NCBI GenBank assembly: GCA_030681595.1
Contig: JAUXSB010000061.1
Location: 5,392-69,391, forward strand
Source: Candidatus Omnitrophota bacterium
GTDB lineage: Bacteria; Omnitrophota; Gorgyraeia; Ghiorseimicrobiales; Ghiorseimicrobiaceae
DNA length: 64,000 bases
Reading direction: 5' to 3'
Part shown: one piece after another, positions 3,230 to 63,838 of the stretch
How positions within the stretch are numbered: the first letter of the stretch is position 1
Layout: every line of letters begins with the position of its first letter
Notes under the pieces: generated by a model
The model's database searches: none
The model's input: only the letters and a program-made list of their open reading frames with translations
Told to the model about the DNA's origin: nothing
Made by a program: the position numbers and the translations under genes

Positions 3230-4099
3230 TTATCTTTTTCCAAAGAATTTCATAAATAATCTTTCATTAAATATTTGTTTTCCATTCTTTTGAGAAAACC
3301 ATTCCCTAGTGTCTGAAGATTTGATTAAATCTTCAACGATTTGCTCACCAGTTTTTAAAATTATCCATTCTTGTTCAGCATAATTAACAGCGCGGCGAGT
3401 ATAACCAGAGGTCGTCATAAATATACATAAAATAGGACTCTTTACAGAAACAAACCAACTAGGCAACTTCTCAACTAAATTTTGATCGCCACGTTGCACG
3501 CTCAAATAATAGGTATGAAATGATCTTATTAAGATAGGAGAAATTTTACTTGAAAAATGTTTAACTTGACCAATAACCCTTATTTTAAAGTTGTCAGGTA
3601 AAATCCTAGTAGTAAGATACTTCCCAATATCAAAAAGTCCACAAAAATCAATACCTTCCTGATTTTTGGCTGTAAGCTGTATAGGATAGATACCACTTTG
3701 TTCTAATATATACTTACATAAAAACTCAAATTTTTGCCAAGATATTTTGTTGATCGCTTGGATTAATTCTTTTTTTTGTTTTCTTAACTCAGAAATCCGC
3801 AGATCTTCTTTGTGCTTTATGCTATAACTAATAAGCAAGTATTCGGGAAATTCATTAAACTCATAAGCAGGAGAAATCCCCTCTTTTTTACAGTCCTCTA
3901 TCCATTTACATATATAAAATTTGGTTTTTTTAAGAAGGACCTGATTTTCATCTATAAGTTGGAACTCACTTAGATTTGGAAAATGTTTTTTTAATTTATC
4001 ATAACTGTACTTTTCTAAGTCTATCTTATCGAACTTTGAATCTTTAATTTCCTTAAGAATTATCTTAGCGATTTTTGTTATCTCAGAATTAGAAAGCAT
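3230..4099 (-). CDS. Mrr-like (type IV restriction endonuclease catalytic domain) protein
   Basis: The C-terminal half WQKFEFLCKYILEQSGI..QEGIDFCGLFD..RVIGQVKHF fits the Mrr_cat pattern (GxDGGIDG ... QCKRY). Its start abuts the stop of the upstream ParB-like gene (4099/4102). Confidence 0.5.
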   Translation of the reverse strand: MLSNSEITKIAKIILKEIKDSKFDKIDLEKYSYDKLKKHFPNLSEFQLIDENQVLLKKTKFYICKWIEDCKKEGISPAYEFNEFPEYLLISYSIKHKEDLRISELRKQKKELIQAINKISWQKFEFLCKYILEQSGIYPIQLTAKNQEGIDFCGLFDIGKYLTTRILPDNFKIRVIGQVKHFSSKISPILIRSFHTYYLSVQRGDQNLVEKLPSWFVSVKSPILCIFMTTSGYTRRAVNYAEQEWIILKTGEQIVEDLIKSSDTREWFSQKNGKQIFNERLFMKFFGKR

Positions 4100-4101
4100 T
4101 T

Positions 4102-5250
4102 TTATTTAATATTTTTTAGTTGAACATTAAGAATTGTTATTAAATTTTCTATTAGTTTGATTATTTCTTCTTTCTGCTTTTTTCCCAGTTGAGTGTTTGC
4201 CAGTTTAATCTGTGGTATAGGTAAGGTGTTTATAACTTTTCCAGTCGACTTTAGGTATTCAATTAACTCAACAATATCTATTGGTTCTTTTCTTTCCTTC
4301 TCTCTAAAAATCTTTTCATGAAATTGCTCGATATCAAAATCTTCTTTTTCGATTTCTTTTTCAAAATCATCTAAAAGTTTCTTATTTTCTTGTATAACAA
4401 GATCGGCCAACAAATCACGAGTATTTTTAGAAACGGTTAATTTCGGTTCTTTTCCTTCTATAGTTGTTGTCCACGAAAGAAACTTTTTAAGATTTTTTTC
4501 ATTCTTGAATTTTCTCTTCTTATCATTCCATCCTAGCCATATCTGTAAGGTGGGTTTTTTAAAGATAATCTCATCGAAAAGCCCGAATTTTTCAGGATCT
4601 AATCTATCACCATAGTCCTCATCACTTCTCGATTGTTCGAATGCATAAAAAGAACGAAGAGATAGAGTAACCTCTGATCGTCCCATTCCACTGAATATAG
4701 CAGCAATCTCACGAACATCTTTTTTACTCTCTTTTTCAAAGTCCGCAAGGAATCTTGCGGTAGGGTATTTCTCCCAAGACTTAATACCTGGAGTGTGTCT
4801 AAAGCCTTGTATAATCCAAGCTATTTCTGGATTCTTTCCGTGGTAAACCAAAGCTTCTATTTTAATAATTCCATCGTATATATCTTTTGGGATATTAATT
4901 CTACCTTTTGTATGTGCTGATTGTAATGTTCTGAGTGCCGCGACTCTTCTATTGCCTTCTACAACGACAAATTGGTCAGTTCCAAAAGGCCTTAAAACTA
5001 TTCTGTCAACAACCCAAAAACCAGAAGTTTTCATGCTTTCCATTAAATCATTAATTCCCTGTTTTTGTAATTGTTGCAAACAATCCTGCTGTATAGCCAG
5101 CTCGGATATCCTAACATCTGGAATCTTTTCTTTTCCTGGCTTGTCAATTCTTGGATTATTGGGATCAAGAAAAATCTGGTCTAGTTTCACTTTTTGGGAG
5201 CCCATATTAGACATTTCAGCCCAAGCTTCTAGTTTTTTATACTTTGGCAT
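4102..5250 (-). CDS. ParB/Srx N-terminal nuclease-like domain protein with a coiled-coil C-terminus
   Basis: IVLRPFGTDQFVVVEGNRRVAALRTL resembles the ParB N-terminal (ParBc) arginine-finger motif GxRRxxA. The C-terminal 150 aa are Lys/Glu-rich. It sits in an operon with the neighbouring nuclease genes. Confidence 0.5.
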   Translation of the reverse strand: MPKYKKLEAWAEMSNMGSQKVKLDQIFLDPNNPRIDKPGKEKIPDVRISELAIQQDCLQQLQKQGINDLMESMKTSGFWVVDRIVLRPFGTDQFVVVEGNRRVAALRTLQSAHTKGRINIPKDIYDGIIKIEALVYHGKNPEIAWIIQGFRHTPGIKSWEKYPTARFLADFEKESKKDVREIAAIFSGMGRSEVTLSLRSFYAFEQSRSDEDYGDRLDPEKFGLFDEIIFKKPTLQIWLGWNDKKRKFKNEKNLKKFLSWTTTIEGKEPKLTVSKNTRDLLADLVIQENKKLLDDFEKEIEKEDFDIEQFHEKIFREKERKEPIDIVELIEYLKSTGKVINTLPIPQIKLANTQLGKKQKEEIIKLIENLITILNVQLKNIK

Positions 5251-5299
5251 GTTCTTCCTCCTTAGAAATTAGCGTTCTACCAACAAAATGAAAATCTCT

Positions 5300-6469
5300 T
5301 TATAAACTTGCTGTTGACTTCTTATTATTTAATTTTTTGTCATATTTATAAACTTTATGCATTCCCCTTTTAAATTCATCGGCATTTTTTCCAAACATTT
5401 TAAGAAAGACTTTTCTATTTTTCCTGATTACACCTCTTGAATAATAAAATGTTGTAATTAATTTAATACCTCGCAATAATATGCTATTCCATTGGGGAGA
5501 GATAATATGTTTTTGGATACTATTTATAGGGCGATATCTCATAGGGAAAATATCAACTCCAAGTTTATTTAATTCATTAATTCGATGATAAAAGAATTCT
5601 GGAGTGTCATATGCCTCTTCTGAATTAAAAATAACATAAACCATTATATCTTTCCCACTATATTTTTTTGCAAGTTTTATCGCATTTTGAATATATCCCT
5701 CTTGTGATGGATTATCAAAAGCAAATCTTAATGGGTCAATTTTCGTTTGGGAAAGAATTTTAGCCTTTTCTTCATCAAAAAGTCTACAATCTATACCTTG
5801 ATTAAAATCAAATGGTTTTCCTATCTTCTTTAATTTTTCAATATCTTTATAAAAATTTGGAGAAGCCAACCAATTATTATCCCAAAAAATAATTTTTTTA
5901 GAATTTGGATTTATATCTTTTTCCCAATTTTTTCTCACAAAGAATTTTGGTTCAAGTAATCGAACAACACAAAATTTACATTTTCTTATACACCCCCTTG
6001 TTGTATATGTTATTGAAAAGGGGAAAGATGGTAGAAAAGAGTAATCAGGACTACATCCTTCAACTTTATCAAAAAGACCAACATGTGGAATTATCCCCGT
6101 TTCTCTTTTTATTAAGTCTGGTAAAAGTGTTGCTAATATACCCCCTACTTTAACTTCAGCATTTGGATATCTACTTTGATAATCTTTTATAGATTTTATT
6201 GCTGCTTGAAAATGATAAGTAAATAGAGTTGTTATATAAATTATATCATATTGCTCTTTAAGTTTTGGTGGTTGATAACCAAAATAATCTTGAGGTGCAT
6301 TATCTTTTATATAATCAACTTCATCTCCTTTATTTTTATGCCAGGTTGAAATTTTCATTAATGCCAATGAAGGATATGGATTCTCATAACCGGGTTCAAC
6401 AAGCAATATTTGTTTATTCATAATTAATCTATAGACCCCATAATATTTAAAGATTCCGCTTTTAACCAA
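5300..6469 (-). CDS. Class B (B12-binding domain) radical SAM protein
   Basis: The N-terminal KQILLVEPGYENPYPSLALMKI is typical of a B12-binding Rossmann domain, followed by TTRGCIRKCKFCVV (CxxxCxxC). The likely true start is the internal Met at about 6421 (MNKQILL). Confidence 0.6.
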   Translation of the reverse strand: MVKSGIFKYYGVYRLIMNKQILLVEPGYENPYPSLALMKISTWHKNKGDEVDYIKDNAPQDYFGYQPPKLKEQYDIIYITTLFTYHFQAAIKSIKDYQSRYPNAEVKVGGILATLLPDLIKRETGIIPHVGLFDKVEGCSPDYSFLPSFPFSITYTTRGCIRKCKFCVVRLLEPKFFVRKNWEKDINPNSKKIIFWDNNWLASPNFYKDIEKLKKIGKPFDFNQGIDCRLFDEEKAKILSQTKIDPLRFAFDNPSQEGYIQNAIKLAKKYSGKDIMVYVIFNSEEAYDTPEFFYHRINELNKLGVDIFPMRYRPINSIQKHIISPQWNSILLRGIKLITTFYYSRGVIRKNRKVFLKMFGKNADEFKRGMHKVYKYDKKLNNKKSTASL

Positions 6470-10880: not shown

Positions 10881-11801
10881 ATGAGCGCTAAAAAAGCAAG
10901 AGACCTAAAAATACAAGTAGCGGAAGGTATTAAGGTATTAGAAGCATCTGTGACTGTCGTAAAGGCAGCGGATAATGTTGCAGAAATAAAAGCAGGGGAT
11001 TCTTTGGATCAAAAAATCAACACAGCCATGCCACTAACACCAGAGTTAATTGAGAACATGGCTAAAAAAGTCAAAGATTTATTAAACAAACAGTCCTCTG
11101 CTGTAGAAGCTTCTGGAGACTCACAGTTTGAAGGCTTCATCGCCCAAGGAATAGAAGCAGGACTTATTATTAGCGCAACAACAGGTAGCGCTATATCGCT
11201 AAATAAAAGCTTTTTAGTTGGACAGCAGAGTAAAGCGATAATTATAAATAACTTTAAGGATATTAATATTTATCAAGGAAACAAAAGCTATAAAGATCAA
11301 CCTGTAATCACTGAAGAAAGTATAAGAAAAATTACTCTTGCTCAACTTTTTAAACAAATAGAAAATTTAACATTAGGAGCATTGGGGTCAATCATTGTTA
11401 TTTTAGTTGTAATTATTACACTATCATTTAAAGCTGGCTATCATTATAGAGAGATTACTCAATCTTCAACAATAATTAAACAAACACCATCTCTTGAACA
11501 GCTAAACAGCTATCAAATATCACTTCTCAAAGAAATTTACAAATATCAGAAAATAACCGAGGTTAATAAAGTCATTATAGATAGAGTGGGATTTATTTTT
11601 GATGAGTCAACAAAGAAAAACACATCGATCAATGTTGCTGTTAATGTATTGGGTAATCGTGCAGATCAAACTCGATTTGAAGAGCTGATAATATCTATCC
11701 CTGAAGTTTTTCTAAAAAGCTTAACAGAAACAAGATGGGGTAGCCCATATGTTTTAACTATTACAGAAGAAACGCGTAAGCTTTTAGATAAGAATCTCTG
11801 A
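10881..11801 (+). CDS. Hypothetical protein with a central TM helix
   Basis: A complete ORF with a GAGGTG RBS before the ATG at 10881. It has a single hydrophobic segment LGALGSIIVILVVIITL. Confidence 0.35.
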   Translation: MSAKKARDLKIQVAEGIKVLEASVTVVKAADNVAEIKAGDSLDQKINTAMPLTPELIENMAKKVKDLLNKQSSAVEASGDSQFEGFIAQGIEAGLIISATTGSAISLNKSFLVGQQSKAIIINNFKDINIYQGNKSYKDQPVITEESIRKITLAQLFKQIENLTLGALGSIIVILVVIITLSFKAGYHYREITQSSTIIKQTPSLEQLNSYQISLLKEIYKYQKITEVNKVIIDRVGFIFDESTKKNTSINVAVNVLGNRADQTRFEELIISIPEVFLKSLTETRWGSPYVLTITEETRKLLDKNL

Positions 11802-24716: not shown

Positions 24717-24850
24717 GTGCTAACCTTCGGATATTCGGCCTTATTAAACGCATAAACCTAAGGTCAATTCAACAACCTAAGAGGATGCTTCAATGCAAAA
24801 GTGCGAAATAATCCTTGAACTACCGATGGCGAATCGCGTATAATACATTT

Positions 24851-25957
24851 ATGAGAATTCCCAGGACAAAAGGCGGGTTAGCCGTCATTAATATTACTTC
24901 TTATTGCAACTCGAATTGCATTTTTTGCAAGGAAGGCAAGCATGATCATCCCTTCAACGTCCCCTTGGAAACCATAAAAAAGACTCTTTTGAAACTTAAA
25001 ACTCTGGGGGTCAATGAGGTTAATTTCATGGGGGGCGAAACAGCGTTAAGAAGCGACCTGGAAGAAATCTTTCAATATACGAAAAAACAGGGCATGACGA
25101 TTGGTTTGGTGACGAACGGCCTGAGGTTCTCAGACCCTGTTTTTGCGAAAAGAATTTTAAAGTTCGTAACCTTTATGGAAATTTCAATCCATGCCGCTGA
25201 CAAGAAGATGTATCATGCTATCAGCGGCAGGGATTGTTTCGAAAAATTACTGCGGGGGATAGAAAATATAAACGCCTACAACCAATGTTCAGCTGTTTTT
25301 TTTAACTTTGTCCCCAATTCAATCAACGCTTCAAAAATGACGGATGTTTTCCGGCTCGTTAAGAAAATATGGCCGAAGAATAACGCATTTTTCCATATTA
25401 AAAAATTAGCCATTAAAGGAAAGGTTAAAACAGCCCCGCAGTTGTTACCGAACGACGCCGAATTGCGCAAGCTGTTAAGAACAGCGCTTAGATACGCCGC
25501 TGAAAATAAAATCGGCGTCTGCGTCAGCGGGTTCCCTTTGTGCGCCTACGATGGATTTGAGCACCTCAGCCTCGAACTTCTGCACGAATTAAAGAAAAAT
25601 AAGAATTTCTTCACGAATAGCTACCTTTTGACGGAGAATACGGATTTTTCGTGTCCCAAGACATCCATCCGGAAAGACACCCACTTTCCCGCCAGATGCC
25701 ATCCCTGCGGCCTTAAACGGATATGCCCCGGGCTCGACCAGCAATATTTTGAGATCAAAAATTCAATAAACTACTTGACACCCCAGAAGAAAAATATCAG
25801 GTCCGTGGTCAAAGAATTTTTACTAAAGAACACGCTTTTTCAAGGTGATTACTTTTATCATTACTATCCCTTTAAAGGCCTATTTAAGAAACACGTCATT
25901 GACATGAAACGCGCCGAGAAGATTTCCCGTCATATGGAGAAATTGCTGCTTACCTAA
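24851..25957 (+). CDS. Radical SAM protein with a C-terminal SPASM/twitch-like Cys cluster
   Basis: ITSYCNSNCIFC (CxxxCxxC) near the N-terminus. The C-terminal Cys-rich segment is CVSGFPLCAYDG...CPKTSI...CHPCGLKRICPG. The track start at 24815 is TTG; the ATG at 24851 is preferred, with TATAAT 10 nt upstream. Confidence 0.7.
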   Translation: MRIPRTKGGLAVINITSYCNSNCIFCKEGKHDHPFNVPLETIKKTLLKLKTLGVNEVNFMGGETALRSDLEEIFQYTKKQGMTIGLVTNGLRFSDPVFAKRILKFVTFMEISIHAADKKMYHAISGRDCFEKLLRGIENINAYNQCSAVFFNFVPNSINASKMTDVFRLVKKIWPKNNAFFHIKKLAIKGKVKTAPQLLPNDAELRKLLRTALRYAAENKIGVCVSGFPLCAYDGFEHLSLELLHELKKNKNFFTNSYLLTENTDFSCPKTSIRKDTHFPARCHPCGLKRICPGLDQQYFEIKNSINYLTPQKKNIRSVVKEFLLKNTLFQGDYFYHYYPFKGLFKKHVIDMKRAEKISRHMEKLLLT

Positions 25958-27531: not shown

Positions 27532-28026
27532 CTATTGTTTATTTTTTTCTGCCACTTCTATATTAATAAAACCGGAGCTTAAACTCCCGGAAAAGGCATC
27601 TAAACCAAATTCCTTACCGTCATAGCCGGCAAAATCTATCTCTACAGCAACCTGCCATTTACCTGCCTTGTTAATCCAGCCGGCAAGGTCGCCGTTCAAG
27701 AGAAGGCTTTTTTCCTTTGGCAAAATAGTTAAAAAGTGTTCTTTTGCCAGAGGCTCCGGGAAACTTGGATGATATTCGAACTTTTCAGTTTTACCGTTAT
27801 ATGTTCTTACTAGTTTCCATAAATTTTTGTGAGGATAGAAAGATATTACCTGAGCCTCTGAATCAGATAAATTTTCCACTATAGCATCCACGGAAATCTT
27901 CTCTCCTAAAGTATAATTGTTTTTTTCGCTTTTAATCGTAAGGCTAACGGTTTGGTTTTTTTCTTCACAGCACCCAAAAGAAAATATCAAGGACGCAAAA
28001 ATAACCATTAATATTATTTTCTTCAT
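27532..28026 (-). CDS. Hypothetical lipoprotein
   Basis: Signal peptide ending with the lipobox-like LIFSFGCCEEK; 164 aa. Confidence 0.4.
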   Translation of the reverse strand: MKKIILMVIFASLIFSFGCCEEKNQTVSLTIKSEKNNYTLGEKISVDAIVENLSDSEAQVISFYPHKNLWKLVRTYNGKTEKFEYHPSFPEPLAKEHFLTILPKEKSLLLNGDLAGWINKAGKWQVAVEIDFAGYDGKEFGLDAFSGSLSSGFINIEVAEKNKQ

Positions 28027-28110
28027 TGCCGTCTCCTTTTTAAGCTTTATTTTTCGCCTACGCCACCTACTATACTATCATATTACTGCTGAATAAAAAA
28101 CAAAAGCATT

Positions 28111-30144
28111 TTATTCCGCTTCTGTATCGCCATTTCCCAAAGCGATAGCCTCTATCGCTTCCTCAACTTTGCGCTCAATGCTTCTCTCGATGAAACCGGG
28201 TATAGCATCTTGGATTTTTCTCTTAAAATCCGACTTTAGCCATTTAAAATTCATGGCGCTTGATAAACCGGAAAGCTGAAAATCAAAATCTAAAAACGAA
28301 AAATCATCCCTCAAAAGCCTAAGCAGGGGCTTAAATTTAGCCGAATCTTTAATTATATTTTTTGATAGCCGCAATAAGAGTATACTGCTTGCCAAATCGC
28401 TGGTAGAAATCCCGAAATAGCCTTCTAAGCCGACGTCTAAAGACTCTAAATTAATATTATCCAATTTAGCTATCGTATCATCTACTAAAAAATCTGCGGA
28501 AAGCCTATTAAAACCTATGCGGGATAATGACGGCATCCCAAAAAAATCTGCCAGCCATTTAAAAAATTCAAAATTATTTAAACGGCCGTTAGCTATGTTC
28601 ATTACCCCGCTTAGGCTAGGCTGGGGATAATTCTGATAATGAAGCCGGCTGTCCAGCATCCCTTCTACTTTGGAAAAATATACCGATAAAAATTTAAGCT
28701 CATCGGCGCTTACTTTTTTAACATCGAGGTTAAATTCGCATTGAGGCACGGGGCCGTCAATATTAATCTTGCCTTCACCGCTTAAGCGCCCGTCATAAAT
28801 TAATGAATTTAACCCTACCATCCTGATTATTCTTTCCTTAATATTAAATAAGGCGTTAAAATCCCTAAAAAATAAACCATGCATATTGTTTCCCGAGAAA
28901 TACTTGAAATCCGCCTCATCAAAATATATATCCAGATTTTCCCCCGAGCGAAATTTAAAAGCCGCGTTTTTAAACGCCGACTCTATTTTCTGAGGAACGG
29001 TTTTATTTTTAACATTCCTTGCAAAACCCAAAGTTATTTTCCCGTTAAATTTATCTGCGCCTAAATCCCCCAGAATATTAAGGTCAAATGCTAAAGGATT
29101 CTTTCCCCTCTCTTCTGGCGGCTGATAATAATATGTGTAACTGCTTATATTTATAGAGGGCGTGGCAGAAAAGGAAATATTGCCTTTTAGATAAAAAGGT
29201 ATGTCTTTCAGGGAAAACTTTAAACTTTCTATCTCTATATTCTGGGAAGTAAAGACCGCTACCCCGGACATATCAAAAAGATTCAATCCCGGCATGGGCT
29301 TTCTGACAACCTGAACCGCGGCCTGATGCCTGGCAGCCAATGACTTAAACCTATCAATCAGCGGTAGCGTTTTCTCACTAAGGGCGTTGGTGGATAGGCC
29401 GCTGCTTAAAGATAAAAAGCCGTTAAAACGCAAGGCGCTCTTCTCAAAGATACCCCAGAGCTTGGCATAAAAATACTTTCTGCTTACTTCAAGGCTATCC
29501 AAGGCAAATCCTTCGCTGGTTAAATAGCCCTTAAGATCATATTGTAAGGTTTCGGGTTTAATACCCGATAAAACATTCGTTAAATTGATTGATCCGGAGC
29601 TAAGGAAATACCCATGGCCCGCCTTTAGGAAAGCCGTAATTCCGACATGCCTATCCAAATTGCCTTTCTGGGGTAATTTCAAATATGCATTTTTTATACC
29701 TAAATTAAAAAATTTATCCTGCGGGAGGTTTTTTAACAGGTCGGCTAATTTCTGGATATTCTTTTTTAAAAAAGAAATGCAGTCGAGATAATCGCCAGAA
29801 GCTCCATCTATATTTACAGCGCTTACCAAAAAAACCCTTTGGGTTATAAACGCGGGAATAGAAAATGCCAGTTTTACTTTTTTTATAGAAAAAAACGCCG
29901 TTTCTTCAAGAGGTGAATCCCTAAAAACACGGATATCTTCCACGGAAGCCGTGGCCGGAAAATAATACTTTATATTTCCTACGGATACTTTCTGGTTAAT
30001 TTGCCCTGAGATTTCTTTTTCGGCCCTGTGCTTTGAGCCTGTAAGAAAATTATTTATTGCGTTTAAGGAAGCGGAAACTACCCAGAATAAAATAGCGGCA
30101 ACAAGAAGGGACCTAATAATATACTTTCGCAAAAAATAGATCAT
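28111..30144 (-). CDS. AsmA-like large membrane-anchored periplasmic protein
   Basis: 677 aa with a single N-terminal TM helix and a long beta-rich body, similar in architecture to the AsmA family. The family call is tentative. Confidence 0.35.
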   Translation of the reverse strand: MIYFLRKYIIRSLLVAAILFWVVSASLNAINNFLTGSKHRAEKEISGQINQKVSVGNIKYYFPATASVEDIRVFRDSPLEETAFFSIKKVKLAFSIPAFITQRVFLVSAVNIDGASGDYLDCISFLKKNIQKLADLLKNLPQDKFFNLGIKNAYLKLPQKGNLDRHVGITAFLKAGHGYFLSSGSINLTNVLSGIKPETLQYDLKGYLTSEGFALDSLEVSRKYFYAKLWGIFEKSALRFNGFLSLSSGLSTNALSEKTLPLIDRFKSLAARHQAAVQVVRKPMPGLNLFDMSGVAVFTSQNIEIESLKFSLKDIPFYLKGNISFSATPSINISSYTYYYQPPEERGKNPLAFDLNILGDLGADKFNGKITLGFARNVKNKTVPQKIESAFKNAAFKFRSGENLDIYFDEADFKYFSGNNMHGLFFRDFNALFNIKERIIRMVGLNSLIYDGRLSGEGKINIDGPVPQCEFNLDVKKVSADELKFLSVYFSKVEGMLDSRLHYQNYPQPSLSGVMNIANGRLNNFEFFKWLADFFGMPSLSRIGFNRLSADFLVDDTIAKLDNINLESLDVGLEGYFGISTSDLASSILLLRLSKNIIKDSAKFKPLLRLLRDDFSFLDFDFQLSGLSSAMNFKWLKSDFKRKIQDAIPGFIERSIERKVEEAIEAIALGNGDTEAE

Positions 30145-30649
30145 CTATATAAAACTCCACCTTATCAATGGAGTAAATTGCTTTATGGCTCCTCAAAAAA
30201 GCTGATAAGTATTTATACTCCTTGGACTCGGCAAACAAAAGTACTACTTGCCTTGACGATATTATCTCTTTTTCTAAATTTTCCACCAATTCCGCGTTTT
30301 TTTGCCGTTTCGCTATCTCCAAAAGATAAACAAGCGCAAAAACCCGCGCTTTAGATTTCGGATACTTTTTAACAAAGCGGTTAAACGCAGCGAAGGCATC
30401 GTAATAATTAGAGGTCAAGAAATAATATTCTCCAACAGCAAAAAGGGCATTTTCGGCTAACTTAGATTCTCCGAAATCATCTAGAAACATTTTAAAATTC
30501 ATAAAGGCAGAATCTAATTCACCGTTCTTCGCGGCTCTAATGCCTTGAAAGTATAAACTTTTATCCATCTGCGCATAGACAAGAGGGCAAATTGAAAGAA
30601 TAATAAACATCGCAATAAAAAAAACTGTAACCGTTCTTATCTTTATCAT
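30113..30649 (-). CDS. TPR-like repeat protein with an N-terminal signal/TM segment
   Basis: Helical repeats NALFAVGEYYFLTSNYYDAFAAFNRFVKKYPKS are typical of TPR. Confidence 0.35.
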   Translation of the reverse strand: MIKIRTVTVFFIAMFIILSICPLVYAQMDKSLYFQGIRAAKNGELDSAFMNFKMFLDDFGESKLAENALFAVGEYYFLTSNYYDAFAAFNRFVKKYPKSKARVFALVYLLEIAKRQKNAELVENLEKEIISSRQVVLLFAESKEYKYLSAFLRSHKAIYSIDKVEFYIDDLFFAKVYY

Positions 30650-30951
30650 AGTTTAGCCAGCGCTTCAGAAGCTTGCATATCTACCTTGATACCAACTGCT
30701 TGCGCTGAATTATTCGCCTCTTTTATCAGCCCTGCCAAAAGATCATCCAAGCTGACTATCGGTTTGCCATCGCGTAAACGCACTATCGCGGCAGGATAGT
30801 TAAATTTATCCAACGCTGCCACATTAAAAGCACTACAGCCCAACATCCCTTTATCCGTAATCATAAAAACTAAATTAACCGGCCCTATCCCTAAAGGAAT
30901 AACAAAGCCATCAACTTGCCTATTAGCTACTTGTATCTTCTTTGCTTCCAT
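30646..30951 (-). CDS. DUF1805 (YunC-like) family protein
   Basis: 101 aa: VIPLGIGPVNLVFMITDKGMLGCSAFNVAALDKFNYPAAIV matches the YunC/DUF1805 core. Confidence 0.5.
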   Translation of the reverse strand: MEAKKIQVANRQVDGFVIPLGIGPVNLVFMITDKGMLGCSAFNVAALDKFNYPAAIVRLRDGKPIVSLDDLLAGLIKEANNSAQAVGIKVDMQASEALAKL

Positions 30952-30975: not shown

Positions 30976-32091
30976 TCAAAATCTTGCCGATATACCTATC
31001 TGATTAATTATATTCTTATATTCAGAAAGAGGATTGTTGCTATCCAGGCTCCAGTAGTCAAACCTATAGGATAGAGTGTAATTTTTTGTAAGTGTGTAGT
31101 ACATAGACAGGCGATAATTATACCTATCATCATATTCTGCCATAAATATAGCTTGGCGCTCTTTATAATTTTTTCTCTCAAAATTAGGGGTAAAAGCAAT
31201 ATAAAGACGGTTGTCTTCCAGGAATAGGCCGGCAATAGTCAGAGAACTTTCAAAGGCATAATAATCATTTAAATCCTGAAGCAGGTCATTAGAGGAATTT
31301 CTGGAGGCTTTGCCTTCTAGGGTAATAATATACCTTCCGATATTACGGCTTAAGCCTGCCTCTAGCGCGTAGCGCTCGTCTTGACGCACAAACTCCTGCT
31401 TTACACCGCTGGGGTTTCTGGCTTTTTTGGCATCGTATTCTTTGACGCTATATTCAAAATTTAAATCGCTGTTCCATTCCGACGAGAAAAATGTTTTTGT
31501 GTTAAGAAAATACTTTAGATTATTATAGCTGGAATCTGAGGAAAGGGGATACCAAAGCGTCTCGTAGCCTATCCCCGGCTCAAGGCGTATTCTGCCTTGG
31601 TAGAAAGGATAAAGCCTCGCCGCTGTGCTTACGCTGCTAAAAAGATAATTGCTGTCAGTAAAATCGGAATATAGCTGGTTAAAAGACAATACGTTGGTGT
31701 TTAAGCCGAACCACCTGGTAAATGTCGGCTTCCAGCTAATCATTGCAAATTGAGTATTAAATATATCCCCTTTGTTAGATGAGTCGTTATTAACATTTGT
31801 CTCGTATCCGCTGGAAGCAGAAGCAAATATTTCAAGCCTAAGAAGGCGCTCCTTCTTTCTCTTTTTGATCTTCAGGAACGCTCTTTGCTTAAGCAGCTCG
31901 ATTAACTCGGATGTGGTCTTAGTTTCGGCTATAGCGCTCTGTTTTATGCTGGAAATCTTATCTTCTAACTGAACAGACCTATTTTCGTTCTCATCTGCGC
32001 AAAGGCCTTTTGGGGTATCTAAAAAAATGGTGCTTAGGCAAAGTATAAAAAAAACAAACTGGGCTAATATTTTTTTTAGGCTTATATTCAA
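30976..32091 (-). CDS. Putative outer-membrane beta-barrel protein
   Basis: Signal peptide, alternating hydrophobic beta-strand pattern, and a C-terminal aromatic residue (…GISARF). Confidence 0.35.
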   Translation of the reverse strand: MNISLKKILAQFVFFILCLSTIFLDTPKGLCADENENRSVQLEDKISSIKQSAIAETKTTSELIELLKQRAFLKIKKRKKERLLRLEIFASASSGYETNVNNDSSNKGDIFNTQFAMISWKPTFTRWFGLNTNVLSFNQLYSDFTDSNYLFSSVSTAARLYPFYQGRIRLEPGIGYETLWYPLSSDSSYNNLKYFLNTKTFFSSEWNSDLNFEYSVKEYDAKKARNPSGVKQEFVRQDERYALEAGLSRNIGRYIITLEGKASRNSSNDLLQDLNDYYAFESSLTIAGLFLEDNRLYIAFTPNFERKNYKERQAIFMAEYDDRYNYRLSMYYTLTKNYTLSYRFDYWSLDSNNPLSEYKNIINQIGISARF

Positions 32092-32463
32092 TTATGCCTC
32101 TTATTATTATTCTTGATAAAATCCTATTTTTCGGGGCTCTAAAGAAATATCCCCCGGCTCTGATTTATTGTAGTAGCTAGAGGTATTTTTGTCAACCCCG
32201 TTAGAAATTCCCTGCCATGGCTAATCTTTCTTTGCAAATAAACTCTCTTGAAGCAGTTTCCAATATCCGGTTTTAACCTTTACAATAGTATATAAGAATT
32301 TTCTAACGGGGTCAATATATATTCGCTATTTGCATTTTTGAAGCTATTTTGCTTAACTCTATACCGAACAATGAGTTATATAAAAAAATGCTTTTGGTAT
32401 ACCTCTTGAAAAAACATGCTTTATAGGGTATACTTATAATGTAAAAGGTAAAATATAACTGTA

Positions 32464-32562
32464 AAGGGCAAACTGCGGGAAACCGCAGGACGCAAAGCCT
32501 TGAGCCTAAAGCTCGCCAAAGAATTATGGCGGCAAAGGCAGTCGGTTGCCGGTTAACGCAAA
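32464..32562 (+). promoter_or_regulatory. c-di-GMP-I (GEMM) riboswitch aptamer
   Basis: AGGGCAAAC-UGCGG-GAAA-CCGCAG-GACGCAAAGCC-UUGAGCCUAAAGCUC matches the GEMM consensus: GGCAAAC, a GNRA-tetraloop P1 hairpin, the invariant GACGCAAAGCC, and GCCUAAA in P2. Confidence 0.65.
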
Positions 32563-32564
32563 GA

Positions 32565-32603
32565 AACCCTCAAACCGACTAATGGCTTTGAGGGTTTTTG
32601 AGT
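32565..32603 (+). terminator. Intrinsic terminator (riboswitch expression platform) directly upstream of the RBS
   Basis: aaccctcaaa-ccgactaatggc-tttgagggtt followed by TTTTG; then an AGGAG RBS and the ATG at 32617. Confidence 0.5.
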
Positions 32604-32616
32604 TTAGGAGTAAGAA

Positions 32617-33060
32617 ATGAGAAAAATAACAAAACTAACAATGATAACCGTAAGCCTAATCTGCCTTTTATCTTTACTGGCGCTTCCTGCTTATGCCTTT
32701 GACAAAGCTGAAATGGACCAGGCATTAAGAGAAGAGCTTGCCAAGATACCGGACATGGAAACAAAACAAGCTATCCTTGATGAATACAAAGAGGTTATCC
32801 GCGAAAGGATGCCGGATTTAAACTTAGATGAAGCCACCTGTCAGAGTTGTGAAGAGGATATTAAGGTATTAGAAAATGAATTAGTTATAAACTCTGTCAA
32901 TGGCGTATTAGACGAAGACAAAATACGAAAAGATAGGGAAGTGCTGCCGGAAACCAATACACCTACGCCTGCTCCAACAGTAGTTACCCCGGTCGTGGAG
33001 GTTCCTCCTCCGCCGCCGCCAGTCGCGCCTAAGCCGCCTAAACCACCGTGTGGCTGTTAA
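32617..33060 (+). CDS. Small secreted protein, paralog A (Pro-rich tail ending in CGC)
   Basis: Signal peptide ...ALPAYA, then the conserved module FDKAEMDQALREELAKIPDMETKQAILDEYKEVIRERMPDLNLDEATCQSCEEDIKVLENEL, then PPPPPPVAPKPPKPPCGC. Confidence 0.55.
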   Translation: MRKITKLTMITVSLICLLSLLALPAYAFDKAEMDQALREELAKIPDMETKQAILDEYKEVIRERMPDLNLDEATCQSCEEDIKVLENELVINSVNGVLDEDKIRKDREVLPETNTPTPAPTVVTPVVEVPPPPPPVAPKPPKPPCGC

Positions 33061-33077
33061 TAATCCTGGGGGTTAAA

Positions 33078-33635
33078 ATGAGAAAAATAATCTTTTTATG
33101 TTCTGTGCTCATGCTAGCAGGGATGTTTTGCTGTTTTAAACAAATTTACGCCTTTGACAAAGCTGAAATGGACCAGACATTAAGAGAAGAGCTTGCCAAG
33201 ATACCGGACCTGGAAACAAAACAAGCTATCCTTGATGAGTATAAAGAAGTTATCAGAGAAAAAATGCCGGAGTTAAATATAGATGAGGCAACCTGTCAAA
33301 GCTGTGAAGAGGATATTAAGGTGCTGGAAAAAGAGCTGTTAGCAAGCTTGGACAAAGGAAATATTGATCCTGGGGAATTCTCCGGAGGGAAAGAAAAATT
33401 GCTTGAGAAACAAAAAGTGTACAAAACTATAACTACAAGCAATACTGTAATGCAAGACCAAACCTCATTGAAGACGAGAACTAGGTATTTCGATGCAGAC
33501 GGCAACCCGGCTTGTGGCTGCGACTCTACCGCCACGGCGGTTACAGATCAAGTTGCGGTAACAACACAGGTACCGGTTACAGTAACCACAACATCGACAG
33601 TTGAAGCCGGTGAAACAGTAGCGGCAGCACAATAA
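33078..33635 (+). CDS. Small secreted protein, paralog B (Thr/Val-rich tail, CGC motif)
   Basis: Start at the ATG at 33078 (GGGGG RBS); the track ORF starts earlier. It carries the same conserved module as paralog A, with about 90 percent nucleotide identity over ~190 nt, then ...PACGCDSTATAVTDQVAVTTQVPVTVTTTST. Confidence 0.55.
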   Translation: MRKIIFLCSVLMLAGMFCCFKQIYAFDKAEMDQTLREELAKIPDLETKQAILDEYKEVIREKMPELNIDEATCQSCEEDIKVLEKELLASLDKGNIDPGEFSGGKEKLLEKQKVYKTITTSNTVMQDQTSLKTRTRYFDADGNPACGCDSTATAVTDQVAVTTQVPVTVTTTSTVEAGETVAAAQ

Positions 33636-33664: not shown

Positions 33665-33697
33665 AAAAACCCGCTTTAGAAAGGCGGGTTTTTTATT
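33665..33697. terminator. Bidirectional rho-independent terminator between the secreted-protein genes and folE
   Basis: aaaaacccgctttagaaaggcgggtttttt. Confidence 0.55.
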
Positions 33698-35848: not shown

Positions 35849-36199
35849 TTATTGCTTGCCTATGCCTTTTAAAACTTCTTTAATTGAATGCGCCAGTATG
35901 GGTATTTCTTCCTTTACCGTTTTCCATAAAATCTCTACATCAACGCCGAAATATTCATGAATCAACTTATTCCTCATCCCGGACATTTTTTTCCAGGGGA
36001 TATCGGGATATCTATGCCTTAGTGCTACAGGGATATTTTTGGCCGCCTCGCCTATTACCTCAATACTTCTTACTACCGCATTTATGGTTTTCTTATCTTT
36101 TGCAAAATCATTAAAATCCATACCTTCGATAAAACTATTTATCTCATTGGTAGAAACAAGGATGTCTTTTATATAATCTCTATAATCCCGCTTTTTCAT
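35849..36199 (-). CDS. hepT: HepT-like (DUF86) toxin, nucleotidyltransferase substrate-binding family
   Basis: 116 aa with the R(x4)HxY-like motif RNKLIHEYFGVD. It overlaps the upstream MNT gene by 4 nt. Confidence 0.75.
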   Translation of the reverse strand: MKKRDYRDYIKDILVSTNEINSFIEGMDFNDFAKDKKTINAVVRSIEVIGEAAKNIPVALRHRYPDIPWKKMSGMRNKLIHEYFGVDVEILWKTVKEEIPILAHSIKEVLKGIGKQ

Positions 36200-41237: not shown

Positions 41238-41473
41238 GAGATTTACCCCGTTAGAAATAATCCGCCGCGGGCGGATGTCTAGCTAATATAAACTTAAACA
41301 TAATTTATAGCTTCTCTAAAAATCTATTGCCCCAAAATGCTTCTGTTGCTATCTCTAACGGGGTTAATTAAAAGGCGTGCCTTACTTTGTTATTTTAAAC
41401 CGAAAATACGAATTGCGGTTATATTATAAAGGAAAACGGGGTAGGCGTCAACAAATAGTTAAAGGGCAGACGA

Positions 41474-61765: not shown

Positions 61766-63829
61766 TTATTCCTTAAGAAGATTTTTAATATCGGGAAGGG
61801 CCCTGTTTGTTTCTTCTTCGCCTTTTTCAATCAGTGCTTCTATTTTATAAAACTCAAACCAATCCGTGCCTAAGGCAAACGGGCGAATCACAACATCTGC
61901 CATCTGGCAATTTGATTCGGAGACAGCCGACTCTAAAGTTTGGATGCTGTTAACAATCACGTCGAATATATTAGGGAAAAACGTATTCTTCATGCGGACT
62001 TTTAAACGATAGGCTATTTTAGCAAAAAACCCTTTTGCCTTTGCCTGTTTCATTGACGCTTCTAATTGTTTTTGGTTAAACTCGTAATTCTGCAGTATAT
62101 GTTCCGGCCGCGGCAGAGTATCCACCGCGATTATCTTTTTTATCCCCATCTTAACTAATGTAGCTATCGGCACAGGCTCAATAATTCCGCCGTCGACAAG
62201 CAGGTCGCCGTTTACTTTTACAGGCGCAAAAAGCCCCGGAATAGCAATGCTTGCCATCACCGCGTCCACCAAGCTGCCTGAGTCAAAAATGAATTTGCTT
62301 CTCTTGCTGATATTGCATGCCACTATTCTAAGCGGAAGATGGCTGTCCTGAAATGTCTTTTTACCGATAACTTTATGCAAAAATTTCTTTATCCTTTTTC
62401 CTTTGGCAAAGGACAATTTAGGAAAGCAAAAATCCAGTAAAAGATGAAATACTTTCCGGGGGCTGTTAAATTCCATGAGAACTTTCTCCAGCTCGCTGCT
62501 ATTTAAGCCTACCGCCCAAAAAGCCGCGATCAAAGCACCCATACTTGAGCCCACCACTACATCAATCGGAATATTCTCCCGCTCAAGTACCTTGATTACC
62601 CCGACATGCGCTAAACCAAAAGCCGCCCCTCCGCTTAACGCCAGCCCCACACGCACATCGCCAATTTCGCGGACAATCCGGCGCAGGATTTTCTTGTATT
62701 CATCTTCAAGGCGCTGCCGCGCGGCTTTATCTTCATGGCTATCACTCCAAAACATCGGCAAGGCGGCATATATTTTATTTCCCAAAGCACCGGAAGCCTC
62801 TTTAACAGAAAGGCAATCCTGCCCGTTTTTCTCATTAATAACTATCTTGAGCTTATCCTGGGGTAAATTTATCTTCGTGCGTAAATCGTCTATTAAAACC
62901 TTGGTCTTGGCTAAATTCTCAATATGGTTATCCGTGACTATGTTGACAATATCCGACTGCCGCAGCGCCTGATAGACCACTTCATCCGGCTCTGCCAGAA
63001 GATCAACTACAACGTAGTGATATTCTCCGGCAAGCTGGGTTAAAAGCGCACTTAAGTTAGCGGTATATCTTCCGTCGGTATGCTCGTGCGCTACATTTAA
63101 GATATCCAAACCGCTAGGCTCATCTTTTATGATGGCGCTTTGAATAACCTTACTTGTAAAGAAAGGCGTATCCAGCTTTATTACCGGCAAATCACTGTTA
63201 TCTGCTTTACTGATATCCATGGCACGGCATACTTCATTCGCTTTTTTGCTTATATCTAAAAGAAGGACGTTCCGCTCGGTTTCCTTCTTTAAATTTAAGG
63301 CGAGATTAACCGCGTATCTGGTGCGGCCGATGCCCCTTACGGCGCTGAAAATCGAAATGATATTGCTTTCAAAGATCCTTTTTTCCTCGGTGTCTTTTTT
63401 TCTCAGGCGCCGGGATAAAGTCTTGCTTAAATCAATAGCTAAATGCGGAATATGGCTTAAAATTATCTGAAAATCATCTTTCTCAATCTTTAAAATTTTA
63501 GAGTCATTGGCGGCAATGGCATTTACCGAATGAGAATCCCCCGTAAGCAAAGAAATAATCCCGAAGTAATTCCCGCAATGCAGGTATTCCAAGGTTTCAT
63601 TTTTTCGCTTCCCGCTTACAATACGCACCCTGCCCGTGATTACGCAGTAGAAAGCATCCGGAGGGTCAAATTCTTTATAAATTAAATCGTCTTTTTTATA
63701 CTCAACTACTTTGCTTCTCTCGATGATTAAATTTTTTTCAAACAGGTTAAGGTTAGAAAAAATCGGCGCGTAATCAACGATAAACGATTTATCCAGGTCT
63801 TTCTTAAAAATACCAAAAGGCAGATTCAT
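61766..63829 (-). CDS. NTE-like protein: cyclic-nucleotide-binding domain, a degenerate P-loop-like middle region, and a patatin-like phospholipase domain
   Basis: N-terminal cNMP-binding beta-barrel (…GNYFG…RSATV-type region). Patatin motifs GLALSGGAAFG and GSSMG (GxSxG), with an Asp in DGG. The ATG at 63829 is preferred over the track's GTG at 63838. Confidence 0.7.
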   Translation of the reverse strand: MNLPFGIFKKDLDKSFIVDYAPIFSNLNLFEKNLIIERSKVVEYKKDDLIYKEFDPPDAFYCVITGRVRIVSGKRKNETLEYLHCGNYFGIISLLTGDSHSVNAIAANDSKILKIEKDDFQIILSHIPHLAIDLSKTLSRRLRKKDTEEKRIFESNIISIFSAVRGIGRTRYAVNLALNLKKETERNVLLLDISKKANEVCRAMDISKADNSDLPVIKLDTPFFTSKVIQSAIIKDEPSGLDILNVAHEHTDGRYTANLSALLTQLAGEYHYVVVDLLAEPDEVVYQALRQSDIVNIVTDNHIENLAKTKVLIDDLRTKINLPQDKLKIVINEKNGQDCLSVKEASGALGNKIYAALPMFWSDSHEDKAARQRLEDEYKKILRRIVREIGDVRVGLALSGGAAFGLAHVGVIKVLERENIPIDVVVGSSMGALIAAFWAVGLNSSELEKVLMEFNSPRKVFHLLLDFCFPKLSFAKGKRIKKFLHKVIGKKTFQDSHLPLRIVACNISKRSKFIFDSGSLVDAVMASIAIPGLFAPVKVNGDLLVDGGIIEPVPIATLVKMGIKKIIAVDTLPRPEHILQNYEFNQKQLEASMKQAKAKGFFAKIAYRLKVRMKNTFFPNIFDVIVNSIQTLESAVSESNCQMADVVIRPFALGTDWFEFYKIEALIEKGEEETNRALPDIKNLLKE

Positions 63830-63838
63830 AGCTATCAC

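Follow-up and report, generated by a model that had tools for sequence, protein, structure and literature searches.

Introduction

In Clostridioides difficile, class I cyclic di-GMP (c-di-GMP) riboswitches are reported to be transcriptional OFF switches, some of them ahead of several small hypothetical proteins (PMC11477304); the flagellar operon and PPEP-1 also lie behind such riboswitches. Both the riboswitch class and riboswitch-gated small exported proteins as a unit are already known. Here we describe a locus with a riboswitch of this class in a stretch of 64,000 nucleotides (hereafter the window) of contig JAUXSB010000061.1 from Candidatus Omnitrophota bacterium (assembly GCA_030681595.1, positions 5,392 to 69,391 of the forward strand), in which the riboswitch precedes two adjacent genes, A and B, for small exported proteins with conserved cysteine motifs. 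The Omnitrophota are uncultured and mostly ultra-small, their cell-surface biology is little known, and the main genomic survey of the group makes no mention of c-di-GMP or riboswitches (PMC10066038).

Our preferred reading of the locus, to which we give a probability of roughly 0.4, is that genes A and B encode c-di-GMP-repressed exported proteins built of a base, a stalk and a thiol tip that act with the outer-membrane barrel protein encoded next to them, A and B being tip variants whose bases are kept matched by gene conversion. What is new is the protein family, its invariant tie to the riboswitch and to the outer-membrane protein, the architecture of two tails on a homogenized base, and the likely OFF sign of the switch.

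Genes A and B and Their Products

The two genes and their parts are as follows; the corresponding NCBI entries are Q8L26_08820 and Q8L26_08825.

32617-33060, forward strand: gene A, 147 residues
32617-32697: signal peptide of A
32698-32883: acidic helical module of A, with CQSC at 32839-32850
32884-33057: proline-rich tail of A, with CGC at 33049-33057
33078-33635, forward strand: gene B, 185 residues, likeliest start ATG 33078
33078-33152: signal peptide of B
33153-33338: module of B, with CQSC at 33294-33305, followed by a Thr/Val-rich tail
33420-33605: predicted long beta-hairpin in the tail of B, with P-A-CGC-D at the turn (CGC at 33513-33521)
33665-33694, between gene B and the convergent folE: hairpin AAAAACCCGCUUU-AGA-AAGGCGGGUUUUUU with flanking A and U runs, -18.1 kcal/mol, probably a bidirectional terminator closing the operon

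We place the start of gene B at ATG 33078, and not at the listed GTG 33048, because the homologs at NCBI and ENA are 185 residues long and the GTG overlaps gene A; a GGGGG run resembling a Shine-Dalgarno sequence lies upstream of this ATG. As gene B starts 17 nt past the stop codon of gene A with no terminator between them, the two are probably co-transcribed as a two-gene operon.

The products of the two genes are related to each other (BLASTP E = 1e-45), and the initial annotation of the window, which had described two adjacent genes sharing a module after the signal peptide at about 90% nucleotide identity, was accurate in this respect. Both open reading frames are present, and a repeat finder returned a single direct repeat of 189 nt (32691-32879 / 33146-33334) at 89% identity; counted directly, the module is identical at 163 of 186 nt over 62 codons. 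This module of about 62 residues begins with FDKAEMD, exactly at the predicted signal-peptidase site (AYA/FDK in A, IYA/FDK in B), and is strongly acidic, with a net charge of -10 or -11. Beyond this repeat A and B have little in common, their tails reaching about 21% identity on a forced alignment, that of A being proline-rich and ending in PPCGC and that of B being Thr/Val-rich with ACGCDS, as had also been noted. No internal repeats were detected in either gene by the repeat finder.

For comparison we drew on related loci, chiefly L001, an ENA contig syntenic with the window, and L002, from a marine metagenome, whose outer-membrane protein is 58% identical to that of the window. The ratio of nonsynonymous to synonymous substitutions (dN/dS) against the L001 orthologs is 0.08 for the module of A, 0.06 for the module of B and 0.20 for the tail of B, values that mark A and B as real genes under purifying selection and, together with the conservation across related loci, exclude a spurious pair of open reading frames.

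Signal-peptide features (two to four basic N-terminal residues, a hydrophobic core, and small residues at -3 and -1) were found in all 12 family members, and none of the 12 shows another hydrophobic stretch once processed (the Kyte-Doolittle mean over 19 residues stays below 0.85), from which we conclude that the proteins are Sec-exported, processed by signal peptidase I and soluble. Lipoproteins were rejected, since the signal peptides end in AYA/F, IYA/F, AYS/F and similar sequences with no Cys at +1 and no lipobox ([LVI][ASTVI][GAS]C). So was anchoring of the sortase or exosortase type (LPXTG, PEP-CTERM, GlyGly-CTERM), as the A-type proteins end at CGC or CDCG and the mature sequences hold no hydrophobic segment. 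Precursors of ribosomally synthesized and post-translationally modified peptides were likewise discarded: the N-terminus is a Sec signal, and the sole nearby radical-SAM gene lies 6.7 kb away and is missing from L001. That gene (24815-25957, forward strand) is inserted between a ComM-like gene and a gene for a 212-residue protein, which lie on the opposite strand.

Distribution of the Family

The whole family comprises about 12 distinct proteins from 9-10 loci among about 15 billion proteins, all on contigs of Omnitrophota type. A word-indexed search of 5.8 billion clusters returned just the two window proteins and one orthologous pair, and a profile search found two extra members and counted 9 clusters among the 5.8 billion. 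When 1.84 billion representatives were searched exhaustively with HMMER and the module profile, five true matches emerged, while P0008 and P0009 were dismissed as noise, these being repeat proteins that match 15-19 residues several times. A first scan of genome contigs for family members yielded nothing; a scan of GTDB species genomes and JGI metagenomes gave one extra organism, a Crystal Geyser "Omnitrophica" metagenome-assembled genome, and the divergent member L011 was found by tracing the neighboring outer-membrane protein gene. As a scan of viral contigs for the family returned nothing, there is no sign of a phage origin.

Pfam and NCBIfam searches with A, B and five further members produced noise only (AcrIC5, ERG2, PspA, DUF5760 and TssO, E >= 0.025), and a PDB profile search with the module gave non-significant matches to copper-ATPase metal-binding domains and to LM1843, which we kept as a lead only. 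The failure of the initial annotation to recognize a family is therefore borne out by Pfam, NCBIfam and PDB profile searches alike, and the homologs, five true representatives among 1.84 billion, are neither abundant nor characterized. By these searches A and B constitute a lineage-restricted orphan family.

The c-di-GMP-I Riboswitch and Its Expression Platform

Upstream of gene A the following elements were identified.

32406-32434, forward strand: sigma-70-like promoter, TTGAAA-17-TATACT, found by consensus scan and kept in L001 and L002
32457-32553, forward strand: c-di-GMP-I (GEMM-I) aptamer, RF01051, 70.3 bits, E = 9.6e-12 (gathering score 35)
32540-32547, forward strand: aptamer 3' strand AGUCGGUU, the 5' half of a predicted antiterminator, paired with 32573-32580 (-12.3 kcal/mol) in the minimum-energy fold of the nascent transcript
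32567-32599, forward strand: intrinsic terminator CCCUCAAACC...GGCUUUGAGGG followed by UUUUU, -18.7 kcal/mol, z = -5.5
32573-32580, forward strand: left arm and loop of the terminator, AACCGACU, the 3' half of the predicted antiterminator

The alignment to RF01051 spans model positions 1-87, with a GAAA loop on the first hairpin, and the P1 helix was placed by eye at 32456-32461 with 32550-32555. RF01051 was found before the first family gene in every locus with upstream DNA (the window, L001, L002/L008, L003, L005, L006/L007, L011 and L015), full-length aptamers in the related loci scoring 42-84 bits; in L004 and L014, which derive from the same sample, the contigs break within the aptamer (model positions 25-87 and 1-41, respectively). 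Control by a GEMM riboswitch, as initially annotated, is supported for the window. A G directly precedes the GC-AAA of helix 1 in all seven leaders that include the 5' end of the aptamer (L004 begins past it), a position that may correspond to the ligand-contacting G20 of Vc2, which governs selectivity for c-di-GMP over cyclic GMP-AMP.

A simple terminator scan missed the hairpins at 32567-32599 and 33665-33694, and both were checked by folding. A terminator hairpin with a U-run that does not overlap the aptamer is present in eight of eight leaders. When the transcript is folded as far as the terminator loop, the minimum-energy structure pairs (A)GUCGGUU with AACCGAC(U) in all seven complete leaders (-9 to -14 kcal/mol), and this antiterminator pairing is retained in 56 of 56 cells across eight leaders (100%), compared with at most 54% for slid registers. 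The changes seen within it are one double change from U-A to C-G (in L007) and five wobble changes. Because the two pairings cross, the antiterminator and the terminator stem would be mutually exclusive in a nested fold. From the architecture of this platform, the riboswitch is likely to be a transcriptional OFF switch, with the consequence that A and B would be made at low c-di-GMP. Such a sign would argue against a role in matrix or adhesion, and the suggestion, made originally from the riboswitch control, that the proteins have such a role appears doubtful given a platform that predicts repression at high c-di-GMP.

A Divergent Outer-Membrane Protein Adjoins the Riboswitch Unit

On the other side of the promoter lies the gene for a candidate partner.

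30976-32091, reverse strand: beta-barrel-type outer-membrane protein, about 371 residues (365-373 across loci), with a signal peptide and a C-terminal ...ARF

This gene is divergent from, and adjoins, the unit of riboswitch and family genes in nine of nine readable loci. Its product carries an N-terminal helix that is invariant (TTSELIELLKQRAxLxxKKxxxExL, net +8 over the 29 residues 58-86); the body is rich in Tyr and Asn, the C-terminal residue is Phe, and the mature protein is free of cysteine. L004/L014 retain the pairing though both outer flanks differ there, with an AMP-binding enzyme past the outer-membrane protein gene and a redoxin, DsbD_TM and an aldehyde dehydrogenase past gene A. 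The outer-membrane protein family is as rare as A/B, with nine close and two distant relatives (30% identity). In the distant homologs ELIELLKQRAL is kept but the polybasic run is missing, and neither a riboswitch nor a family gene occurs in their neighborhood. The window protein matches BBP2_2 (PF10082) weakly (12 bits, E = 0.093, gathering score 23.7), and as it is the distant homologs P0021 and P0022 that carry precomputed PF10082 matches and fit the outer-membrane protein profile at 1e-48, the link to BBP2_2 is transitive only. A PDB profile search with the outer-membrane protein returned nothing.

That the two families share so narrow a distribution and lie side by side in all readable loci suggests joint action of the outer-membrane protein with A/B, and from their complementary charges (-10/-11 for the module, +8 for the helix) the acidic module may dock on the basic helix.

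Two small secreted paralogs whose neighbor is a divergently encoded outer-membrane barrel bearing an N-terminal helix also bring to mind fiber or matrix subunits secreted through that barrel, as CsgA/CsgB are with CsgG in curli and FapB/FapC with FapF in Fap, in which case B would be the beta-rich polymerizing subunit and A an accessory protein or nucleator. Regulation by c-di-GMP would suit such a system, as would the tail of B, predicted to be a long Thr/Val/Gln-rich beta-hairpin. We nevertheless regard it as unlikely. The proteins have no internal imperfect repeats and no Pfam curlin or Fap match; L002 and L003 have B tails that are short and carry many charges, and the proline-rich rod of the A tail is not amyloid-like. 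Many loci, moreover, have one type only, and the switch is predicted to be OFF, whereas induction at high c-di-GMP is the usual expectation for matrix genes.

An Old Duplication With Modules Evolving in Concert

Genes A and B are both present in L001 and both in L002, where the order is B then A. Their tails are orthologous across lineages (window B vs. L002 B, E = 2e-6; window A vs. L011 A, E = 7e-7), so both tail types predate the splits from L001, L002 and L011. The modules group differently: in the quartet of window and L002 modules, 42 informative nucleotide sites support grouping by genome, none supports (A,A)(B,B), and three support the third topology. The corresponding comparison of window and L001 modules is mixed (6, 6 and 2 sites). 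In L002 the similarity of A and B reaches into the signal peptide. Independent duplication in each lineage, which would also produce clustering by genome, was rejected on the orthology of the tails. With modules that cluster by genome and tails that cluster by type, these comparisons establish an old duplication, the modules of which evolve in concert through recurrent gene conversion.

The synonymous distance (dS) between the A and B modules of the window is 0.75, compared with 0.8-0.9 for the module orthologs of the window and L001 and about 0.5 for the orthologs of the outer-membrane protein and folE. The last homogenization in this lineage is thus about as old as the split of the two sampled species, and the high nucleotide identity of the two modules reflects strong purifying selection (dN/dS of about 0.06) together with gene conversion.

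The initial annotation had proposed instead a recent tandem duplication and had suggested a matrix, adhesin or signaling role; on the corresponding reading the genes would be turned on by c-di-GMP. The 89% nucleotide identity of the shared segment, the upstream riboswitch and the exported products with Cys motifs are all in keeping with that reading. However, the paralog types predate the splits from L001, L002 and L011 (both being found in L001 and in the distant L002), the module dS of 0.75 exceeds the value of about 0.5 for housekeeping orthologs, modules group by genome while tails group by type, and the platform architecture predicts an OFF switch, all of which make this reading very unlikely; the description of the genes as recently duplicated is not supported.

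The tail of A gave a divergent value. Between the window and L001 its dS (32884-33057) is about 0.10 with a dN/dS of about 1.1, compared with a dS of about 0.8 for the module and about 0.5 for neighboring genes, these being small numbers; codon constraint in the Pro run or a recent exchange is possible.

L015, a strain otherwise identical to L002 (100% across the A gene), has a single chimeric gene (1655-2241) where L002 has the B-A pair (4100-5300). This gene takes its leader and the 5' half of the signal peptide from B and everything further on from A, with the junction within the shared GGTTATGGGTATTATGT. The fusion represents either a deletion by recombination between tandem copies or a collapse by the assembler, and it displays the homology that gene conversion would use. 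The locus is a clean example of domain-limited concerted evolution, in which modules are homogenized and tails kept distinct, and carries the lesson that high nucleotide identity of neighboring genes need not imply recent duplication.

Cysteine Motifs and the Two Types of Tail

AlphaFold predicts the module of A and B as three helices, the third of which is opened by T-C-x-x-C in 11 of 12 members. All 12 have a CxC, as CGC, CRC or CDC, which lies at the far end of an elongated spacer in every member; where a CxxC is present (11 members), the distance from it to the CxC is 52-83 residues. The proteins had been annotated as secreted with Cys motifs, and this description extends to the family, since the signal features (12/12), the CxC (12/12) and the CxxC (11/12) are near-universal. 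A fixed double-disulfide staple joining CxxC and CxC was considered and dropped, as L011 has no CxxC.

In the A-type tails (window, L001, L002, L004 and L011) the spacer is a proline-rich linker (polyproline, KPxP/KPxPK or (EP)6) and the protein terminus is CGC or CDCG. The B-type tails (window, L001, L002, L003, L005 and L016) are Thr/Val/Glu-rich, those of L002 and L003 being short and highly charged. L007 has a hybrid tail of three AAPEPV repeats followed by ACGC and nine residues. In the AlphaFold model of window B, strands are predicted at residues 115-138 and 153-176 (pLDDT 75-88) with P-x-C-x-C-D at the turn; Foldseek found no PDB structure matching this model below E = 1, and the best-ranked entries were generic long hairpins such as pore-toxin stems and the flagellar LP ring.

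In L004 a TlpA/Sco-like thioredoxin-fold protein and a DsbD_TM/CcdA reductant transporter are encoded at 606-1777 on the reverse strand, convergent with the A-type gene; these neighbors may be relevant to the redox state of CxC and CxxC.

The cysteine motifs lend themselves to a reading of A and B as proteins that bind or chaperone a thiophilic metal, for instance Cu(I), in the periplasm, the TCxxC resembling the MxCxxC of HMA/Atx1 and the CxC tail resembling CCS, a protein that combines CxxC and CxC. The only PDB profile matches were to copper-ATPase metal-binding domains ((E)ATCxxCExDI vs. GMTCxxCxxxI), and the redoxin and DsbD_TM/CcdA neighbors in L004 would keep periplasmic thiols reduced. 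These matches are non-significant, however (E 0.1-0.24), the predicted fold is all-helical and not the beta-alpha-beta-beta-alpha-beta of HMA, and the CxxC is missing from L011. Nor are there conserved copper-handling genes near the locus, nothing ties c-di-GMP to metal handling here, and the redoxin neighbors occur in one locus only and on the opposite strand. In our judgment this explanation, too, is improbable.

Conserved cysteines in exported proteins, with a proline-rich tail in A, could equally point to a disulfide-cross-linked component of the envelope, as in the Cys-rich complex of the chlamydial outer membrane or the planctomycete wall proteins rich in Cys and Pro, groups to which the Omnitrophota are supposed to be related. 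But there are just four cysteines per protein and none in the mature outer-membrane protein, no Pfam YTV or chlamydial Omc match was obtained, and the distribution is far too narrow for a core wall component, so that we consider cross-linking of this kind quite unlikely.

A Model for the Locus

The reading that we favor, of repressible base-stalk-tip proteins acting with the outer-membrane barrel, would operate as follows. With ligand bound, the aptamer would keep its 3' strand and the downstream terminator would form; with no ligand, the aptamer 3' strand would pair with the left arm of the terminator and RNA polymerase would read through. The exported proteins would each consist of a base, the strongly conserved acidic three-helix module that usually has a CxxC; a stalk, formed in A-type proteins by a proline-rich rod and in B-type proteins by a long beta-hairpin; and a tip, the CxC thiol at the far end of the stalk, which may serve in disulfide cross-linking or in binding of a thiophilic metal. 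The base would perhaps dock on the invariant basic N-terminal helix of the outer-membrane protein. A and B would be alternative stalk-and-tip versions on a common base, which recurrent gene conversion between the tandem copies would keep identical.

Several points weigh against this model. As regards the switch, covariation in the antiterminator is thin: a single compensatory event is seen and 134 of 500 shuffles reach the same level, the control being non-significant because there is so little variation among the leaders. Outside C. difficile, moreover, c-di-GMP-I riboswitches of both signs exist. In L002 the A-type gene, which is the second there, has its own TTGAAA-17-TATACT (4780-4851) with no aptamer, behind a weak hairpin after B, and its product may escape c-di-GMP control. 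As regards the proteins, a four-cysteine site cannot be essential, given that L011, a divergent member of the A-type, has no CxxC, and the AlphaFold models are poor overall, with mean pLDDT (predicted local distance difference test) scores of 51 (A) and 55 (B) that are too low for fold assignment. As regards the partner, folE lies downstream in eight loci and most loci are syntenic, so the adjacency of the outer-membrane protein gene is partly inherited gene order, with L004/L014 the sole clearly rearranged witness; and ELIELLKQRAL is not specific to A/B, since it also occurs in the distant homologs that have neither riboswitch nor family gene.

It is conceivable, though rather doubtful, that a barrel with exchangeable stalk-and-thiol-tip subunits on an acidic base is a so far undescribed envelope device of a small Omnitrophota clade that is made only at low c-di-GMP. 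Such a device might, for example, tether these ultra-small, possibly host-dependent bacteria or mediate contact during a free or attack phase, and recombination between the tandem modules would then switch which tip is made.

The locus is of wider use irrespective of that extension: a single riboswitch invariably accompanies one orphan family and one outer-membrane protein specific to the lineage, which offers a compact handle on c-di-GMP control in Omnitrophota. The RNA can be assayed in vitro, both proteins are soluble and small, and the gene for the predicted partner is the adjacent one. The distribution of the system is narrow, and its biochemical function is inferred.

Other Features of the Window

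Past the outer-membrane protein gene, at 27532-30945 on the reverse strand, lie genes for a DUF1805 protein, a YfiO/BamD-like tetratricopeptide-repeat protein, and proteins of 677 and 164 residues, which look like an outer-membrane biogenesis cluster; the L011 homolog of the 677-residue protein has a faint AsmA match. The cluster is found in the window, L001 and L011 and not in L002 or L003, and the genes past the outer-membrane protein vary elsewhere.

An element of about 118 nt resembling a miniature inverted-repeat transposable element, with terminal inverted repeats of 14-15 nt (ACCCCGTTAGAAAT ... ATTTCTAACGGGGT), occurs in the window at 32195-32312 and 41245-41364 and in L002 at 3753-3852. 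The first window copy sits between the outer-membrane protein gene and the riboswitch promoter, a position at which the element is missing in L001 and equivalently present in L002; the second (41245-41364) has only the termini in common.

A HepT-like toxin gene (35849-36199, reverse strand) occupies the gap between mnmE and a folC-like Mur-ligase gene, where L001 has 23S_rRNA_IVP, and by this comparison the gap appears to be a small variable islet. A protein of 690 residues with cyclic-nucleotide-binding, AAA_31 and patatin-like phospholipase domains is encoded at 61766-63838 (reverse strand). The long open reading frames of the window are nearly all on the reverse strand, the forward-strand units being the A/B operon, 10881-11801 and 24815-25957.

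Comparison With Known Systems

Among the individual parts, the outer-membrane protein can be set beside the putative beta-barrel porins of BBP2_2 (PF10082), to the C-terminal end of whose model the window protein gives its sub-threshold match; the close subfamily differs from the distant BBP2_2-type homologs in its polybasic helix extension and in always being paired with the riboswitch unit. The A tails, with (EP)6, KPxPK or polyproline, resemble the (EP)n/(KP)n spacer of TonB and would form a polyproline-II spacer about as long as the B hairpin, although A and B have neither the TonB C-terminal domain nor a membrane anchor; the resemblance is compositional only. With HMA/Atx1 and CCS there is a local likeness, in the TCxxC at the N-terminus of a helix and a second CxC on a flexible C-terminal extension. 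A and B differ from these proteins in that the similarity is at E >= 0.1, the module is helical and not ferredoxin-like, the proteins are exported and not cytoplasmic, and one member lacks the CxxC; for HMA (PF00403), no Pfam match was obtained in seven members at E up to 5, and the PDB per-domain E-values are 11-19.

At the level of layout, the curli (csgBA/csgDEFG) and Fap (fapA-F) systems likewise combine two small secreted paralogs with an outer-membrane barrel that has an N-terminal helix, and FapC carries a conserved Cys motif. In contrast to their subunits, A and B have no sequence or profile similarity to them and no repeats, one of the two has a proline-rich rod, and the predicted c-di-GMP sign is opposite.

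With class I c-di-GMP (GEMM-I) operons such as those of C. difficile the locus shares the aptamer family, a transcriptional terminator platform, the predicted OFF sign and a cargo that includes small proteins of unknown function. It differs from them in its cargo, which is unrelated to any described riboswitch-controlled protein, in its host, an uncultured member of the Omnitrophota, and in a link between riboswitch and gene that is invariant across the whole family.

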